Positions 20,722 to 27,062 of a DNA stretch of 32,000 nucleotides are shown here, one piece after another. The notes below the pieces were generated by a model that saw only the letters and a program-made list of their open reading frames with translations, searched no databases and was not told the DNA's origin. How positions within the stretch are numbered: the stretch's first letter is position 1; every line of letters begins with the position of its first letter. The position numbers were made by a program, and so were the translations under genes. This DNA is from Actinoallomurus bryophytorum (lineage in GTDB: Bacteria; Actinomycetota; Actinomycetes; Streptosporangiales; Streptosporangiaceae): NCBI RefSeq assembly GCF_006716425.1, contig NZ_VFOZ01000001.1:7241237-7273236 (forward strand). Reading direction: 5' to 3'.

Positions 20722-23700
20722 TTGGGTTCTCCGAAGCTCGTCGCAGCGGTGTCGCGGTCGGGAATTTTCGCTGCCGCGAAGGGTCTGTTCCGGAGCCCTG
20801 CCGTTCGGGTGGCCGCCCTCGCCTCTCGTGTGGGAAACCTGGTCGGCAGGGGTGCGCTTCGTACCGGTCTCAGCGGTCTGCGCAGATCACCGAGTTATCT
20901 GTCCCGGTCCATGACCAAGGACCCGATCGATGTTGCCAGTGGCGAGGTGGTGCTGCGCCAGGTCGACGTGGAGCTGGCCGGCGTTCTGCCGTTGTCGCTG
21001 GAGCGTACGCACGTGTCGTCCTATCGTGCCGGTCGCCTGTTCGGCACCTCGTGGGCGTCGACCCTGGATCAACGGCTGGAGTTCGACGCGGAGGGCGTGT
21101 GTTTCGCCGCGGCGGACGGAATGGTGCTCGCCTATCCGCCGGTGCGTCTGCCGGAGACCCCTGTCCTGCCGTTCGCGGGCCCGCAGTGGGCACTCGCGGT
21201 CGACCAGGACGGTGGCCATTCCGTCACGGACTCACAGGCCGGCCGCACGCTGCATTTCGCTTCCGCGGGCGGCGGGCCGGGCGTCCTGCCTCTTTCGGCG
21301 ATCAGCGACCGCAACGGTAACCGGATCGACCTTCTTCATGACGACAGTGGGACCCTCGTCGAGGTCCGGCATTCGGGCGGGTATCGAATCGGTGTCGAGA
21401 CCGATGCGACCCAGCGTGTGACGGCTTTGCGGCTGATCTCCGACGGCGAGGGCGGCGGGCGGGAACTGGTCCGTTACCGCTATGACGACAACGGGCGGCT
21501 GGCCGGGGTGCTGAACTCATCGGGCAGGCCGCTGCGATTCGAGTACGACCCGCACGACCGGCTGACCGCCTGGATCGACCGCAACGGCCATTGGTACCGG
21601 TACGAGTACGACGAGCTGGGCCGCGGTGTCCGCGGTCACGGGTCGGATGGCTTCTTGGACGTGGCTCTCGCCTTCGAGGACGGGCTCACCGTCGTGACCG
21701 ACGCGCTCGGGCACCGGACGGACTATCACCTGAACGAGATGGGCCAGGTGGTCCGCCAGGTCGACCCCCTGGGACGTGCGACGACCTCGGAGTGGGATCG
21801 CCACGACCGGCTGCTGTCCCGCACCGATCCGCTCGGGCGTAAGACGCGGTATTCCTATGACGAGGCGGGCGACGTCACCGCCATCACGAGGCCCGACGGC
21901 CGGCAGATCACGGCCGCGTACAACGCGCTCGGCCGGCCGGTCCGGACGGCCGACGCCGCCGGCCGGGTCTGGCGGCAGGCCTATGACGACCGCGGCAATG
22001 TCATCGCGGTGACCGATCCGGCCGGAGTCACCGTGCGGTACGAGTACGACGAGCGGGGTGCTCTGTCAGCGATCGTCGACCCGCTCGGGGCGGTGACCCG
22101 GTTCGTCAACGACGGCGCGGGCCTGCCGGTCACCGTCGTGGATCCGCTGGAGGGCGTCCACGGCTGCGTCCGCGACCGGTTCGGCCGTATATCGGAGATC
22201 GTGGATCCGCTTGGCGGGATCACTCGCATCGGCTGGACGCTGGAGGGCAGACCTGCCTCACAGGTGCTGCCGGATGGGGCCACCGAACGCTGGTCATACG
22301 ACGCCGAGGGAAACCTCGTCGAATACACCGACACCATGGGCCTGGTCAGCAGGACGGAATACGCGGCTTTCGATGTGCCCGCCGTCCGGATCGCGCCGGA
22401 CGGCACACGGCTGGAGTTCGCCTATGACGCCGAGCTGCGGTTGACGGCGGTCACCAATCCGCAGGAACTCGTGTGGCGCTATACCTATGACGCGGCGGGT
22501 GACCTGGTCCAGGAGACGGACTTCAACGGCCGGGCCATCCGCTATGCCTACGATGCGGCGGGACAACTCGCGGAGCGTGCTGTCGGCGCCGGTCAAACGA
22601 CCCGTTACTCGCACGACCTGCTCGGGAACGTCGTCAGGCAGGTTTCCGGTGACGGCCTCGCGACCTTCGCCTTCGACGTCACGGGCCGCCTGGTCCGAGC
22701 GGTGAACGCGGACGCCGACGTGCGGTTCGACTACGACGAGCTCGGCAGGGTGGTGGCCGAGGAGTGCAACGGCCGCAGGCTCACCGTCGGTTATGACGCC
22801 CTGGGGCGCCGCGTACGGCGCCGAACCCCCTCCGGCGCCGAGGCCGATTGGGACTATGACATCGCAGGGCGTCCGGCCGTACTCCACACCGCGGGCCAGA
22901 CGATTCGGTTCGAACACGACCTGGCCGGCCGGCAGGTCCGCCGTCATGTCGGGGACGCCGCGACCCTGGACCAGGAGTGGGACCTGCGTGACCGGCTGAG
23001 CCGCCAGACGTTGCGGGGCGTCCCCTCGGCCACCGGCGATCCTGCGTACGCGCCGCACCGCGCCGACTCCGCCGAGCCGGGGAGCCCGCTTCAGCGGCGC
23101 GCGTACTCCTACCGGCCCGACGGCGGTGTCGCCCGGATCATCGACCAGAGCCTGGGAGACCGAACCGTCGAGCTCGACGCGGCCGGGAGGGTGACCGGAG
23201 TCCATGCGGCGGGCTGGGACGAACGCTACGTCTATGACCCGGCGGGGAATCCGGTCCACGCCACCTGGCCGGAGACCGCGACCGGCGGGTCCTGGGACGC
23301 CGGCGCCGCCGGCGGGCGCGACTACACGGGGACCCTGGTCCGCTCGGCGGGCGATGTCCGCTACGAGTACGACGGCCGAGGCCGTGTCGTAGTCCGGCAG
23401 CAGAGACGTCTCTCGTCCAAGCCCAGGACCTGGCGATACGCCTGGAATGACGACGATCGCCTCGTCGCCGTCACCACCCCCGGCGGACAGCGGTGGCGCT
23501 ATCTGTACGACGCTCTGGGACGCCGCGTCGCCAAACAACGGCTACGGCCGGACGGTCACTCCGTCGCCGAACAGACCGACTTCACCTGGGATGACGTCGT
23601 ACTGGCAGAGCAGACGCATTCCGTCATGGAGGACGCCGGCGCCGTGACGCGCACGACCGCGTGGGACTACGAGCCCGGCGGCTTCCGGCCGATCGCCCAG

Positions 23701-24462
23701 ACCGAACGCGTCCTGAGCGGCGAGAGCCCCCAGGACGCGATCGACGAGAGGTTCTACGGCATCGTCACCGACCTGACCGGATCTCCCTCCGAGATGGTCG
23801 ACTCAACCGGCGACCTGGTCTGGCAGAGCGTCTCCAGCGCATGGGGGATCGGGGCGCCGCGAGGATCGGCGGCCTGCCCGCTGAGGTTCCCCGGCCAGTA
23901 CCACGACGCCGAAACCGGGCTTCACTACAACTTCCAGCGCTTCTACGACCCTTACACCGCGCGATACCAGAGCCCGGACCCGCTCGGCCTGTCGCCACAG
24001 CCTGACCCTCACGCCTACGTCCATGACCCGATGAACTGGGCCGACCCGCTCGGCCTGGCGCCATATGCTCTGTTCGTCAGCAGAATGGCCTTTGTGCTCC
24101 GTCACCTGAACGAGCCATCCCGGCTCAAAGCCATCAAGCTGGCCGTGCATGACAACCGCGAGATGTTCAACAGGCTCGGTGGAAAGGCCCCCCAGTCCAA
24201 CGCGACCATCCGTGACCTGCTGAAGCTCAAGGAGGGGAACCCTTCTTGGAAAGCGAGAGCGGCGAGCGCGAGTAGCCGATCGGACGCCGAACTGTTGCAG
24301 TCGGTCTTCCAGCCCATGGACGGTCAGTACATGGCTGTTCATCCCCTCTATCCGGGCATGATATTGCAAGGCAACCACAGGCGCAGGGAACTCCTCAACC
24401 GCGTAGATGATTTGAATTCAGGCATCTCACTGGAGACGCCCATCTTCATCAACAACTTCTAG
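20722..24462 (+). CDS. RHS/YD-repeat polymorphic toxin with a variable C-terminal module
   Basis: 1246 aa. An N-terminal DPIDVASGEVVL...LERTHVSSY block (DUF6531-like) is followed by about 20 YD repeats (YRYDDNGRL, YEYDELGR, YSYDEAGDV, YTYDAAGDL ...). The RHS core ends FPGQYHDAETGLHYNFQRFYDPYTARYQSPDPLGL...DPMNWADPLGL (24025-24057), followed by a 134-aa tail. The start is uncertain (TTG 20722 or ATG 20911). Confidence 0.9.
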   Translation: MGSPKLVAAVSRSGIFAAAKGLFRSPAVRVAALASRVGNLVGRGALRTGLSGLRRSPSYLSRSMTKDPIDVASGEVVLRQVDVELAGVLPLSLERTHVSSYRAGRLFGTSWASTLDQRLEFDAEGVCFAAADGMVLAYPPVRLPETPVLPFAGPQWALAVDQDGGHSVTDSQAGRTLHFASAGGGPGVLPLSAISDRNGNRIDLLHDDSGTLVEVRHSGGYRIGVETDATQRVTALRLISDGEGGGRELVRYRYDDNGRLAGVLNSSGRPLRFEYDPHDRLTAWIDRNGHWYRYEYDELGRGVRGHGSDGFLDVALAFEDGLTVVTDALGHRTDYHLNEMGQVVRQVDPLGRATTSEWDRHDRLLSRTDPLGRKTRYSYDEAGDVTAITRPDGRQITAAYNALGRPVRTADAAGRVWRQAYDDRGNVIAVTDPAGVTVRYEYDERGALSAIVDPLGAVTRFVNDGAGLPVTVVDPLEGVHGCVRDRFGRISEIVDPLGGITRIGWTLEGRPASQVLPDGATERWSYDAEGNLVEYTDTMGLVSRTEYAAFDVPAVRIAPDGTRLEFAYDAELRLTAVTNPQELVWRYTYDAAGDLVQETDFNGRAIRYAYDAAGQLAERAVGAGQTTRYSHDLLGNVVRQVSGDGLATFAFDVTGRLVRAVNADADVRFDYDELGRVVAEECNGRRLTVGYDALGRRVRRRTPSGAEADWDYDIAGRPAVLHTAGQTIRFEHDLAGRQVRRHVGDAATLDQEWDLRDRLSRQTLRGVPSATGDPAYAPHRADSAEPGSPLQRRAYSYRPDGGVARIIDQSLGDRTVELDAAGRVTGVHAAGWDERYVYDPAGNPVHATWPETATGGSWDAGAAGGRDYTGTLVRSAGDVRYEYDGRGRVVVRQQRRLSSKPRTWRYAWNDDDRLVAVTTPGGQRWRYLYDALGRRVAKQRLRPDGHSVAEQTDFTWDDVVLAEQTHSVMEDAGAVTRTTAWDYEPGGFRPIAQTERVLSGESPQDAIDERFYGIVTDLTGSPSEMVDSTGDLVWQSVSSAWGIGAPRGSAACPLRFPGQYHDAETGLHYNFQRFYDPYTARYQSPDPLGLSPQPDPHAYVHDPMNWADPLGLAPYALFVSRMAFVLRHLNEPSRLKAIKLAVHDNREMFNRLGGKAPQSNATIRDLLKLKEGNPSWKARAASASSRSDAELLQSVFQPMDGQYMAVHPLYPGMILQGNHRRRELLNRVDDLNSGISLETPIFINNF

Positions 24463-24471
24463 GATCTTTGA

Positions 24472-24885
24472 ATGCGATTCACCAAGGGCGATCGTCACGG
24501 CAGAAGCTGGCCGACCGTCGATCTCTACACGACAGCGGGACGAGGAGACATCAAGACGATGTCTCCTCCCGCCCTCGAACGCCTTATGACGGTGGCACGC
24601 GAAAAGGAGTGGAGCGCCGTCGGCCGCCCGGCATGGTGGGGCGCGCACAAAGACCGCGTCCGATCCCTGTGGATGGTCGTCTTCGGCCCGGAAGGGACCA
24701 CGCTGCTTCGGTGCATCGTGATCGCCGCTCTCGACGACGGCTCCGGGGGGAGTTTCACCCTCGACGTTCACCCCGCCGACTTCGACCGCCTGCCGGACGC
24801 GACACCGGAAGAACTGACCATGCTGGCCCACGCGTATCTCGCGCGGTTCCCGCCGCTCGAACTCGATCTCGACCAGCGGGAATGA
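24472..24885 (+). CDS. Candidate cognate immunity protein of the RHS C-terminal toxin
   Basis: 137-aa ORF beginning 9 nt after the RHS stop, on the same strand, with its 5' part in the same lower-GC patch. I recognised no family. The call rests on the canonical toxin-immunity gene order. Confidence 0.55.
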   Translation: MRFTKGDRHGRSWPTVDLYTTAGRGDIKTMSPPALERLMTVAREKEWSAVGRPAWWGAHKDRVRSLWMVVFGPEGTTLLRCIVIAALDDGSGGSFTLDVHPADFDRLPDATPEELTMLAHAYLARFPPLELDLDQRE

Positions 24886-24897
24886 GGGAGCGGGACG

Positions 24898-25188
24898 TTA
24901 CACGCCGGGCGGCTCGCGGAAGGTGGTCAGCTCCAGGTCGATGAAGGCGGCGATCATCGCCCGGTACGTACGCTCGGTCACGTCCGGTGAGGCACCGGCC
25001 TCCGTGGCCAGGGCGCGCGCCTTGGCCACGACCTGCTCCACGCGGCCGGGAGCCCGTACGGCATCGGTGTCGGCCTTCAGCCGCCCGGCCCTGCGCACGA
25101 GGCCCTCGCGTTCGGCGAGCAGGGTCACGAGCCGCCGGTCGAGGCGGTCGATCTCGGCACGGATCTCGTCGAGGGGATTGTCGCTCAT
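24898..25188 (-). CDS. Chorismate mutase (AroQ class)
   Basis: 96 aa. LDEIRAEIDRLDRRLVTLLAEREGLVRRAGRLK...R..QV is the classic CM type 2 helix pattern. AGAGGA lies before ATG 25188. Confidence 0.85.
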   Translation of the reverse strand: MSDNPLDEIRAEIDRLDRRLVTLLAEREGLVRRAGRLKADTDAVRAPGRVEQVVAKARALATEAGASPDVTERTYRAMIAAFIDLELTTFREPPGV

Positions 25189-25349
25189 GAGTCGTCCTCT
25201 GGTCGGCTCCCGGGCTCACGGCCCGGCACGACCAGCCCAGACCGGCTACGGGAGCGGCGGTCTGGAAGCGTGAAACGACAGTCCGCCTAAGGGCGGCGCC
25301 ACCATGATGCGGAGCGAGTCGTCACCCGCAGAACGTACCAGCCGGCGGC

Positions 25350-27062
25350 TCAGTGCGACTCGCGCCGTACCTCGCTCCCGCTGGAGCCCGTCAGGAAGTC
25401 CAGGTCGGCACCCTTGTCGGCCTGCAGCACGTGGTCGATGTAGAGGCGTTCCCAGCCACGGACCGGAGCGGCGTGGGCGGCGCCGGACGCGGGCTCGCGT
25501 GCCTCCAGCTCGCCCTCGGGCAGGTCGACGTCCAGGCGCCGCGCCGCCACGTCCAGGACGATCATGTCCCCGGTCCGTACCTTCCCGAGCGGGCCGCCGG
25601 CGGCCGACTCCGGGGCCGTGTGCAGGACGACCGTGCCGTACGCGGTGCCGCTCATGCGGGCGTCGCTGATCCGCACCATGTCGCGGACGCCCCTGGCGAG
25701 CAGCTTCGCCGGCAGCGGCATGTTGCCCACCTCCGGCATCCCCGGGTATCCCTTCGGCCCGCAGCCGCGGAGCACCAGCACGCTGTCCTCGTCGACGTCC
25801 AGGTCCGGGTCGTCCAGGGCCGCTCGCATGTCCTCGATGCTGTCGAAGACCACGGCGCGGCCGCGGTGGCGCAACAGCGACGGTGACGCGGCGGCGGGCT
25901 TGACGACCGCGCCGTCGGGGCAGAGGTTGCCGCGCAGGACGGCGATGCCCGCCTCCTCCTGCAGGGGCGAGGTACGGCGGCGGATGACGGTCTCGTCGTG
26001 GATCTCGGCCTCGGCCAGGCCCTCGCCGATGGGCCGCCCGGTCACCATCAGGGCCGAGCCGTCGAGCAGGTCGGCCACCTCGGCCAGCACCGCACGCAGG
26101 CCGCCGGCCCGGTGGAAGTCCTCCATCAGGTGCGCCCCGGCCGGTTGCAGGTCGACGAGCAGCGGCACCTTCGCGCCGGCGTGGTCGAAGTCGTCCAGGG
26201 TCAGCGGGATGCCCGCGCGCCCGGCGATCGCCAGCAGGTGGACGACCGCGTTGGTGGAGCCGCCGATCGCGGCCAGCGCCACGATCGCGTTCAGGAACGA
26301 GCCGCGCGACAGGACCGTGCTCGGACGCCGGTCCTCCGCGACCATCTCCATGATCGCGGTTCCGGCCTCGTGGGCGCGTTCGAGCAGGCGGCTGTCCGGC
26401 GCCGGGATGCCGGCCACGCCGGGCAGCGTCATGCCCAGCGCCTCGGCGACGCAGGCCATCGTCGAGGCGGTGCCCATCGTGTTGCAGTGGCCGCGGCTGC
26501 GGATCATCGAGGACTCGGCCTCCAGGAACCGGTCCTGCGACAGCGTGCCCGCGCGCACCTCCTCGCTGAGCCGCCACACGTCGGTGCCGCACCCCAGCGG
26601 CGTGCCGCGGAAGTGACCGGTCAGCATCGGGCCGCCCGGCACGACGAGCGCCGGCAGGTCGACCGAGGCGGCGGCCATCAGCAGCGCGGGGATCGTCTTG
26701 TCGCAGCCGCCGAGCAGCACCACGCCGTCCACCGGGTTGGCGCGGATCATCTCCTCGGCCGCCATCGCCGCCAGGTTGCGGAACAGCATCGCCGTCGGGC
26801 GCAGCTGCGTCTCGCCCAGCGAGGGCACCGGCAGCTCCAGCGGGATGCCGCCGGCCGCCCAGACGCCGGCCTTGACGCTCGCGGCGACCTCGCCGAGGTG
26901 GCTGTTGCAGGGCGACAGGTCCGAGGCGGTGTTGGCGATCGCGATGTGGGGCCGCCCGTCGAAGGCGTCCGAGGGGAGACCGCGCCGCATCCAGGCCCGG
27001 TGGATGAAGGCGTTCCGATCGGTGCCCGAATACCAGTCCTGACTGCGGGGTGTACCGGCCAT
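25350..27062 (-). CDS. IlvD/Edd family dehydratase
   Basis: Family blocks are present: CDKTIPALLMAA, PGGPMLTG, RSRGHCNTMGTASTM, GGSTNAVVHLLAIA, GPKGYPGMPE and RMSGTAYG. ATG 27062 follows GAGGAGG. Substrate specificity (dihydroxy-acid versus sugar-acid) cannot be called from sequence alone. Confidence 0.9.
   Translation of the reverse strand: MAGTPRSQDWYSGTDRNAFIHRAWMRRGLPSDAFDGRPHIAIANTASDLSPCNSHLGEVAASVKAGVWAAGGIPLELPVPSLGETQLRPTAMLFRNLAAMAAEEMIRANPVDGVVLLGGCDKTIPALLMAAASVDLPALVVPGGPMLTGHFRGTPLGCGTDVWRLSEEVRAGTLSQDRFLEAESSMIRSRGHCNTMGTASTMACVAEALGMTLPGVAGIPAPDSRLLERAHEAGTAIMEMVAEDRRPSTVLSRGSFLNAIVALAAIGGSTNAVVHLLAIAGRAGIPLTLDDFDHAGAKVPLLVDLQPAGAHLMEDFHRAGGLRAVLAEVADLLDGSALMVTGRPIGEGLAEAEIHDETVIRRRTSPLQEEAGIAVLRGNLCPDGAVVKPAAASPSLLRHRGRAVVFDSIEDMRAALDDPDLDVDEDSVLVLRGCGPKGYPGMPEVGNMPLPAKLLARGVRDMVRISDARMSGTAYGTVVLHTAPESAAGGPLGKVRTGDMIVLDVAARRLDVDLPEGELEAREPASGAAHAAPVRGWERLYIDHVLQADKGADLDFLTGSSGSEVRRESH

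Follow-up and report, generated by a model that had tools for sequence, protein, structure and literature searches.

Toxin domains with a ParB fold were predicted in 2012 (Zhang et al. 2012, PMC3482391), and the first to be characterised, in 2026, was ToxB, a toxin that forms the C-terminus of certain CdiA proteins in Erwinia, Providencia, Klebsiella and Proteus (Kaljevic et al., bioRxiv 10.64898/2026.05.05.722872). The locus compared with these systems here lies in a stretch of 32,000 nucleotides (the window) of the Actinoallomurus bryophytorum genome, where an intact RHS open reading frame (ORF) of 1246 residues (20722..24462, + strand) ends in a C-terminal domain of 134 residues (the CT; residues 1113-1246 of the protein, nucleotides 24058-24459) and is followed by an ORF of 137 residues. 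On balance, this region is probably a two-gene module that consists of a nucleotide-dependent ParB-fold toxin like ToxB and its cognate immunity protein, the activity being predicted by analogy.

The crystal structure of ToxB with its immunity protein, at 2.4 Å, has a ParB-CTPase fold with ATP or ADP; the phosphates are contacted by G105, N106, H107 and R108, corresponding to G101, E102, R103 and R104 of Caulobacter ParB, and the adenine (N6) is contacted by D75 (bioRxiv 10.64898/2026.05.05.722872). ATP binding, hydrolysis and toxicity are all abolished by the substitution R108A. ToxB possesses neither Box III nor a dimerisation domain, its active site is occluded by the immunity protein, and it causes no DNA damage, induces no SOS response and binds no DNA. 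CdiA-ToxB has been reported in 52 of 68,709 species, mainly Enterobacterales (all bioRxiv 10.64898/2026.05.05.722872).

Two other ParB-related toxin families have been described from sequence (PMC3482391). The Tox-ParB domains of Actinobacteria are found on RHS and HINT carriers, possess a conserved DGHHR motif for which a nuclease role was favoured, and have Imm20, Imm27 and Imm-SuFu as immunity partners. Tox-ParBL1, of which the Neisseria MafB protein NGK_2271 is the type, has an [NT][RT][RT] motif that is usually x-R-R, a conserved N-terminal serine, and SUKH and Imm44 as partners.

The CT family and its RHS carrier

The CT has no matches in Pfam, NCBIfam or the PDB sequences, which bears out the statement of a preliminary description of this DNA that the toxin could not be assigned to a named family. 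A tblastn search of plasmids with the CT found no match either. A word-indexed protein search retrieved two close relatives (66% and 59% identity), both of them tails of RHS proteins, and the same kind of search with a profile of the family retrieved nine matches, none of which has a Pfam domain. In an exhaustive search of 1.84 billion representatives with a profile of three CT sequences, 82 representative proteins were found at E<=1e-3, 38 of these at E<=1e-10; two of the 82 (P0039 and P0080) are repeat proteins that look like false positives. In the rest, the matching region lies almost without exception at the very C-terminal end of proteins ranging from 100 to 3702 residues, and in most it covers positions ~32-132. 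The long carriers contain RHS repeats, PT-HINT or SpvB domains, and their CT portion is free of Pfam domains. Because the family occupies the C-terminus of unrelated carriers (RHS, PT-HINT, SpvB-RHS), these sequences indicate that the CT is a real, though uncatalogued, polymorphic-toxin family. Its members are encoded by three species of Nonomuraea, by Actinoallomurus oryzae, by Pseudonocardia, Streptomyces, Actinomadura and Kitasatospora, and by a Limnocylindrales metagenome-assembled genome (MAG). What is new is a sequence family missed by current domain libraries, together with a new immunity family; ParB-fold polymorphic toxins as a kind were already known, RHS toxin/immunity pairs that lack a family assignment are frequent, and no concept is changed.

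In an alignment of 58 family members, L54, G105 and R108 (numbered from the start of the CT) are invariant, and N48, V51, D53, D76, L79, P86, N106, H107, L112, R115, I123 and T127 show at least 90% conservation. The residues G105 to R108 form a motif with the consensus [QEDN]-G-N-H-R, in which the position before the glycine is variable. GNHR had been singled out in the preliminary description, which quoted the string GQYMAVHPLYPGMILQGNHRRRELLNRV, beginning at residue 1201 of the protein (nucleotide 24322); it is indeed the key motif, invariant or nearly so in the 58 members. The first 40 residues of the CT differ in kind from the core that follows them (Table 1): most family members do not align there, and residues 1-31 are only 26-32% identical at the homologous loci L002-L005, versus 56-68% for the core. 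Substitution rates relative to the metagenome contig L035 (nonsynonymous, dN, 0.56; synonymous, dS, 0.70) suggest that residues 1-40 are nearly unconstrained. The isoelectric point of the CT is 10.1, most of the positive charge being located in this variable linker; the core alone has a charge of +1.9.

Table 1. Features of the RHS toxin locus, in coordinates of the window.
Feature	Position	Strand	Remarks
RHS carrier	20722..24057	+	N-terminal region, DUF6531, ~20 RHS/YD repeats, RHS core domain
DPMNWADPLGL	24025..24057	+	Second DPxGL motif, closes the RHS core; residues 1102-1112; putative self-cleavage boundary
CT residues 1-40	24058..24177	+	Variable basic two-helix linker before the core; model helices 2-15 and 21-40; pLDDT 77-91
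CT residues 41-134	24178..24459	+	Conserved toxin core; predicted ParB/sulfiredoxin-like fold (58-sequence alignment, AlphaFold2 model)
D76 (residue 1188)	24283..24285	+	Start of SDxELLxSVFxP helix; candidate base- or Mg-contacting residue
G105-N106-H107-R108 (residues 1217-1220)	24370..24381	+	Putative phosphate-binding P-motif (GxxR, ParB Box II)
AGGA	24461..24464	+	Shine-Dalgarno-like; overlaps toxin stop codon, 7 nucleotides before immunity ATG
Candidate immunity gene	24472..24885	+	137 residues, acidic (isoelectric point 5.8); directly after toxin; no known family
Right-hand recombination (divergence) breakpoint relative to L035	24498..24511	.	~36 nucleotides inside immunity gene

On the carrier, Pfam recognises 20 stretches of RHS_repeat (PF05593, E 6e-92), DUF6531 at residues 67-138 and RHS (PF03527) at residues 1014-1042. 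The end of the core at DPMNWADPLGL and the length of the CT behind it had been located correctly in the preliminary description. The motif pair SPDPLGL...DPMNWADPLGL is also kept at L002-L005, L032 and L035, and downstream of this DPxGL...DPxGL boundary the sequence varies between carriers. Self-cleavage after DPLGL is established for RHS proteins; by analogy, the protein in the window would encapsulate its last 134 residues, cut them off after DPLGL and deliver them as a toxin. This protein and the RHS proteins at L002-L005 (Nonomuraea and Actinoallomurus oryzae; 56-69% identity) are orthologous from end to end, and counting all species besides Actinoallomurus bryophytorum, RHS orthologues of similar length are present in four. 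The whole protein being orthologous in Nonomuraea and A. oryzae, the unit is old in this lineage, its modularity visible only across the wider family. Nonomuraea antimicrobica is represented by two assemblies: one has an intact RHS gene (1207 residues; L002 797-4420), and in the other the gene is split between reading frames and called only as a fragment of 202 residues (L001 5003-6609), due to either a frameshift or an assembly error.

Fold and predicted activity of the toxin

Several features are shared by the CT and ToxB. Both are C-terminal polymorphic toxins of ~130-150 residues with a small immunity gene directly after them, and both have the P-motif G-N-H-R, which is identical in the two (the equal numbering, 105-108 from the cleavage site, is a coincidence). 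A conserved aspartate is found upstream of G105, at a distance of 29 residues in the CT (D76) and 30 residues in ToxB (D75). The CT ends 26 residues past GNHR with no Box III, helix-turn-helix or dimerisation domain, and for that reason is not expected to act by binding DNA. In contrast, the carrier of the CT is an RHS protein of a Gram-positive actinomycete, with the toxin following DPLGL, whereas ToxB follows VENN on the CdiA proteins of Enterobacterales. The Pfam family PF02195 finds ToxB but not the CT family, neither the adenine-stacking Y81 nor the ToxB-specific W134 is conserved in the CT family, and the 137-residue protein shows no similarity to the iToxB-like ORF found in Pantoea (P 0.16).

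The likeness to the other families is looser. Like Tox-ParB, the CT has a predicted ParB fold, RHS and HINT carriers, and an xGxHR motif ending in an invariant arginine; its [QEDN]-G-N-H-R differs from DGHHR in a variable residue for the aspartate and an asparagine for the first histidine, the glycine, second histidine and arginine being kept. Imm20, Imm27 and Imm-SuFu were not encountered, as the immunity proteins and downstream genes match no Pfam family. Tox-ParBL1 too is ParB-related, divergent and borne by polymorphic-toxin carriers, but it was rejected as an assignment for the CT, which has N-H-R with the histidine at least 90% conserved; the Tox-ParBL1 partners SUKH and Imm44 were not found with the CT family. 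Compared with the N-domain of canonical ParB/Spo0J (PF02195; 1vz0, 7bm8) and with sulfiredoxin, the predicted order of elements is the same, and GNHR falls on GERR of ParB. Sulfiredoxin has G-C-H-R at this position, sharing the pattern G-x-H-R. The CT differs from canonical ParB in falling below the Pfam threshold, in having no Box III, DNA-binding domain, dimerisation domain or ParA-binding motif, and in its predicted role, that of a secreted toxin instead of a protein for chromosome segregation or repair.

The preliminary description had pointed to a ParB/sulfiredoxin-like core and had proposed Foldseek as a means of comparison. A model made with AlphaFold2 from the 58-sequence alignment reached a predicted local distance difference test score (pLDDT) of 92.3 and a predicted TM-score of 0.80, versus a pLDDT of 51 with three sequences only. 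After the N-terminal helices it has short strands, helices 65-72 and 76-84, strands 93-95 and 98-104, helix 106-116 and a final strand, and GNHR is placed exactly at the junction of strand 98-104 with helix 106-116. The first-ranked Foldseek match in the PDB is Spo0J/ParB of Thermus (1vz0; 77 aligned columns, 23% identity). Among 26 matches in BFVD, seven of the twelve with descriptive names are called ParB/Sulfiredoxin, ParB-like nuclease domain, Spo0J or ParB; ParB-like proteins are rare in phages, with a Spo0J-like match in 163 of 50,697 phage records. No second fold is recurrent in the Foldseek matches from either database.

Profile comparisons gave the same register. The ParB N-domain profile was built from 16 sequences, namely the Thermus Spo0J fragment, checked residue for residue against 1vz0, and 15 phage loci; a scan of viral contigs for ParB sequences gave one locus only. 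Alignment of the CT family with this profile by hhalign scored 16.5-16.6 (P 0.02-0.03; 3 of 200 column shuffles as high) and laid SDAELLQSVF...GNHR on SLKELADSIR...GERR. ToxB was represented by residues 1-112 from the gBlock sequences of the preprint and by the C-terminal part from a Pantoea soli plasmid fragment; against these partial sequences, hhalign gave P 3-7e-4, a level reached by none of 150 column shuffles. Pfam ddrB-ParB (PF18763) gave sub-threshold matches to two of the 58 CT family members in the same region (best E 0.025) and also a weak match to the Pantoea ToxB fragment (E 0.043).

The Pantoea fragment is itself an orphan ToxB-like C-terminus (…YISEGNHRMVAAQEIYKKTG…QNGSW…), annotated as hypothetical (L025 877-1485; plasmid NZ_CP032703.1). 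Next to it comes a 108-residue ORF whose annotation reads 'zinc ABC transporter substrate-binding protein'; its position after the fragment makes an iToxB-type immunity gene the likelier identity. A SymE toxin gene adjoins. A match in Pantoea dispersa was dropped as a source of ToxB sequence, having only the CdiA entry region in common.

Several results weigh against a ParB fold and against kinship with ToxB. None of the fold or profile comparisons individually reaches conventional significance: the best PDB match has E 2.0 (probability 0.06, TM-score 0.22), the BFVD matches have E 0.14 at best and TM-scores of 0.28-0.40, and the hhalign probability is 1.6% for ParB and 27-30% for ToxB. PF02195 (ParBc) matches none of the 58 family members even at E 10, and a search of the PDB sequences with the 58-sequence profile was empty. 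With GNHR held fixed and the other columns shuffled, the mean score against ToxB is still 21.3, as compared with 26.8 observed, and 5 of 100 shuffles reach the observed value, so that the similarity of the CT to ToxB is mostly the motif and marginal beyond it. The register of Box I is ambiguous, as the spacing and the pattern D-x7-F-x-P-x-[DE]-G favour D76, whereas the direct alignment with ParB favours S82. Moreover, ToxB Y81, which stacks on the adenine, lacks a conserved counterpart in the CT family.

These results could signify that the core belongs to another alpha/beta fold, unrelated or new, and has a different activity, the GNHR motif being fortuitous or convergent. Sub-significant scores throughout, TM-scores of 0.2-0.4, the silence of PF02195, and a ToxB similarity that lies mostly in the motif would all be accounted for. 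Such an explanation is nevertheless unlikely, because five independent weak signals (the best PDB match, the enrichment in BFVD, the hhalign alignments, the ddrB-ParB matches, and the position of the motif at a strand-helix junction) point to one superfamily in the same register, and no other fold recurs. ToxB, whose ParB fold is proven, does no better: as a positive control it gave P 5.5e-4 over 21 columns with the ParB profile used for the CT family, which equals the level of that family against ToxB, and its composite sequence found no ParB in a phmmer search of the PDB, which indicates that weak scores are to be expected of a genuine ParB-fold toxin with these tools. The model and alignments thus make a ParB/sulfiredoxin fold of the CT core likely, and the clue given in the preliminary description stands as the best available assignment, with ParB ranked first in the PDB, at scores that are sub-significant in each test.

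If the ParB-fold, ToxB-like reading is correct, the released piece would consist of a variable basic helical linker (residues 1-40) and a compact alpha/beta core (residues 41-134) with a minimal ParB/sulfiredoxin-type fold, in which the G-N-H-R strand-helix junction would bind, along with Mg2+, the phosphates of a nucleoside triphosphate. If the analogy with ToxB holds, toxicity would depend on nucleotide binding and slow hydrolysis in the cytoplasm of the target cell, and would be independent of DNA binding. ATP would be the first candidate, although the base-contacting residues are not conserved with ToxB. The acidic 137-residue protein would most likely block the active site by direct binding.

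The same fold might instead support a metal-dependent DNase or RNase, with the GNHR/DGHHR-type motif as a metal site that cuts phosphodiester bonds. A nuclease was favoured for Tox-ParB by Zhang et al. 2012 (PMC3482391), several of the Foldseek matches are annotated as 'ParB-like nuclease domain', and the CT as a whole is strongly basic. Yet PMC3482391 itself traces the nuclease label of ParB to an erroneous study, the core is only mildly basic, and ToxB, the sole characterised GNHR toxin, hydrolyses ATP without damaging or binding DNA, all of which leaves a nuclease improbable.

There is about an even chance that the CT family represents a second lineage of ParB-fold nucleotide-dependent toxins, undetectable by PF02195 and equipped with an immunity family unrelated to iToxB. 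Its carriers are RHS and PT-HINT proteins of Actinomycetota and of at least one Chloroflexota MAG, with at least 82 representatives at 50% identity. If this is so, ParB-fold toxins would be much commoner and more widespread than the reported distribution of CdiA-ToxB suggests, and the unconserved base-contacting residues would leave room for another nucleotide or another reaction, such as a sulfiredoxin-like phosphotransfer. The locus is an independent system, genetically tractable in Streptomyces-type hosts, in which three questions can be addressed: whether nucleotide binding is a common basis of toxicity, which nucleotide is used, and how an unrelated immunity protein would block the same pocket.

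The candidate immunity gene

The 137-residue ORF starts 9 nucleotides past the toxin stop codon. As had been noted before, its product has no recognisable motif: Pfam and NCBIfam contain no match, and the PDB sequences gave two insignificant matches only (best E 0.029 over 16 residues). A word-indexed search retrieved five homologues (P0003-P0007, 73-100% identical). At L002, L004 and L005 the toxin stop codon overlaps the start of the immunity gene, which suggests translational coupling of toxin and immunity protein. The overlapping ORF in Nonomuraea is 60% identical to the 137-residue protein, homologues are found throughout L003-L005, and at the Actinomadura locus L009 a distant homologue (E 3.8e-6) stands directly behind a PT-HINT toxin of just 34% identity. 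Thus toxin and downstream ORF occur together in five genera, Nonomuraea, Actinoallomurus and Actinomadura among them, and with the CT on RHS, PT-HINT and SpvB-RHS carriers the toxin/immunity module postulated in the preliminary description is supported. No homologue of the 137-residue protein is present at L006-L008, from which it follows that other immunity types exist.

The start of the gene is annotated differently in the NCBI record for Actinoallomurus bryophytorum (P0005), a protein of 108 residues that begins at Met30 and is 100% identical to residues 30-137. Residues 1-29 (KWPxxDLYxxGGRGDIK; window 24472-24558) are conserved across genera with dN/dS of 0.2-0.5, metagenome gene calls of the homologues are 137-138 residues long, and an AGGA sequence lies upstream; on these grounds the 137-residue start is more likely to be right. 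The possibility that the low-G+C beginning of this ORF is non-coding was ruled out by the same conservation and purifying selection.

A decaying remnant, in which an inactive CT would stand by chance next to an unrelated hypothetical gene, could be imagined from the missing secretion system within the window, from the alternative start in the NCBI record, and from the existence of degenerate relatives such as the P0025 fusion, but is highly improbable given the intact RHS ORF with orthologues of similar length in four other species, the intact motif, the dN/dS values of the CT core (0.23) and the immunity gene (0.17-0.55), and the co-occurrence of toxin and downstream ORF down to 34% toxin identity.

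P0025 (L031 1377-1982), an orphan copy of the toxin, ends in ~23 residues that match the C-terminal end of the immunity family (E 3.5e-4), and appears to be the product of a deletion that fused toxin and immunity protein. Its neighbours are part of a DDE transposase and another orphan PT-HINT module.

Allele exchange, base composition and gene neighbourhood

The metagenome contig L035 (1-1736) is syntenic with 23991-25745 of the window, including the chorismate mutase gene on the opposite strand. DNA identity drops from ~95% on the right-hand side of ~24508 to 57-81% on the left-hand side; a single-breakpoint likelihood scan placed the maximum-likelihood breakpoint at 24508, with a mismatch frequency of 0.28 on the left and 0.068 on the right (log-likelihood gain 50.8). 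Synonymous divergence is high in the last 21 codons of the RHS core (dS 0.59, dN 0.088) and in CT residues 41-134 (dS 0.745, dN 0.169, giving the dN/dS quoted above), as it is in the linker, and low in immunity codons 13-137 (dS 0.089, dN 0.037) and in the chorismate mutase gene (dS 0.15, dN 0.055). This pattern of divergence indicates an allele exchange that covered the RHS tail, the CT and ~12 immunity codons and ended inside the immunity gene, near the end of the dip in G+C content; the left end of the divergent tract is beyond the contig. The preliminary description had interpreted the CT and the start of the next ORF as a swapped-in toxin/immunity cassette. The CT does lie in a divergent tract, but this tract takes in the tail of the RHS core and stops after only ~12 immunity codons; the remaining part of the immunity gene is ~95% identical, as is the flank.

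The breakpoint is a concrete case of toxin-allele exchange without replacement of the immunity gene. Because the toxin cores of the window and L035 differ by 26% and their immunity proteins by only 8%, the immunity protein may recognise a conserved surface of the toxin, plausibly the nucleotide pocket as in ToxB. The metagenome relatives L032 (650-5417) and L033 (103-4882) contain the same unit of RHS protein, toxin and immunity protein (CT 66% and immunity protein 82% identical) in a different neighbourhood, beside a MarR regulator; either the whole three-part unit moved or the flanks changed. The toxin alleles of L035 and L032 are 63-66% identical to that of the window.

The lower G+C content reported for the CT and the first ~100 nucleotides of the 137-residue ORF was confirmed by measurement: 0.573 for the CT and 0.60 for the first 100 nucleotides of the ORF, compared with 0.693 for the RHS core, 0.675 for the remainder of the ORF and 0.7035 for the whole window. 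The CT lies 3.1 standard deviations under the mean of all 405-nucleotide windows, 0.7% of which are equally low, and third codon positions are likewise poorer in G+C in the CT (0.76) than in the core (0.84). Since the drop from core to CT recurs at the homologous loci L002, L004, L005, L007 and L009, it is a trait of the toxin family and not of the Actinoallomurus bryophytorum genome alone.

The neighbours of the module in the window include genes for a thiamine pyrophosphate-dependent enzyme, chorismate mutase, dihydroxy-acid dehydratase, an L,D-transpeptidase, a major facilitator superfamily transporter and an ATP-binding cassette ATPase; no secretion system is encoded within these 32 kb. 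In Nonomuraea, weak WXG100/EspC matches and genes with YbaB domains are found just downstream of the toxin-immunity pair (L001 7168-9484), with nothing comparable in the window, and a Streptomyces carrier has a weak N-terminal match to a type VII secretion signal (E 0.019). Export of the RHS protein by a type VII system is a possibility. The only other low-G+C stretch of the window besides the CT is at ~1119-1590, where the 405-nucleotide minimum (0.56) starts at 1186; it extends over the gap that separates ORF 314-1015 from ORF 1358-1837 and into the beginning of the second of these.

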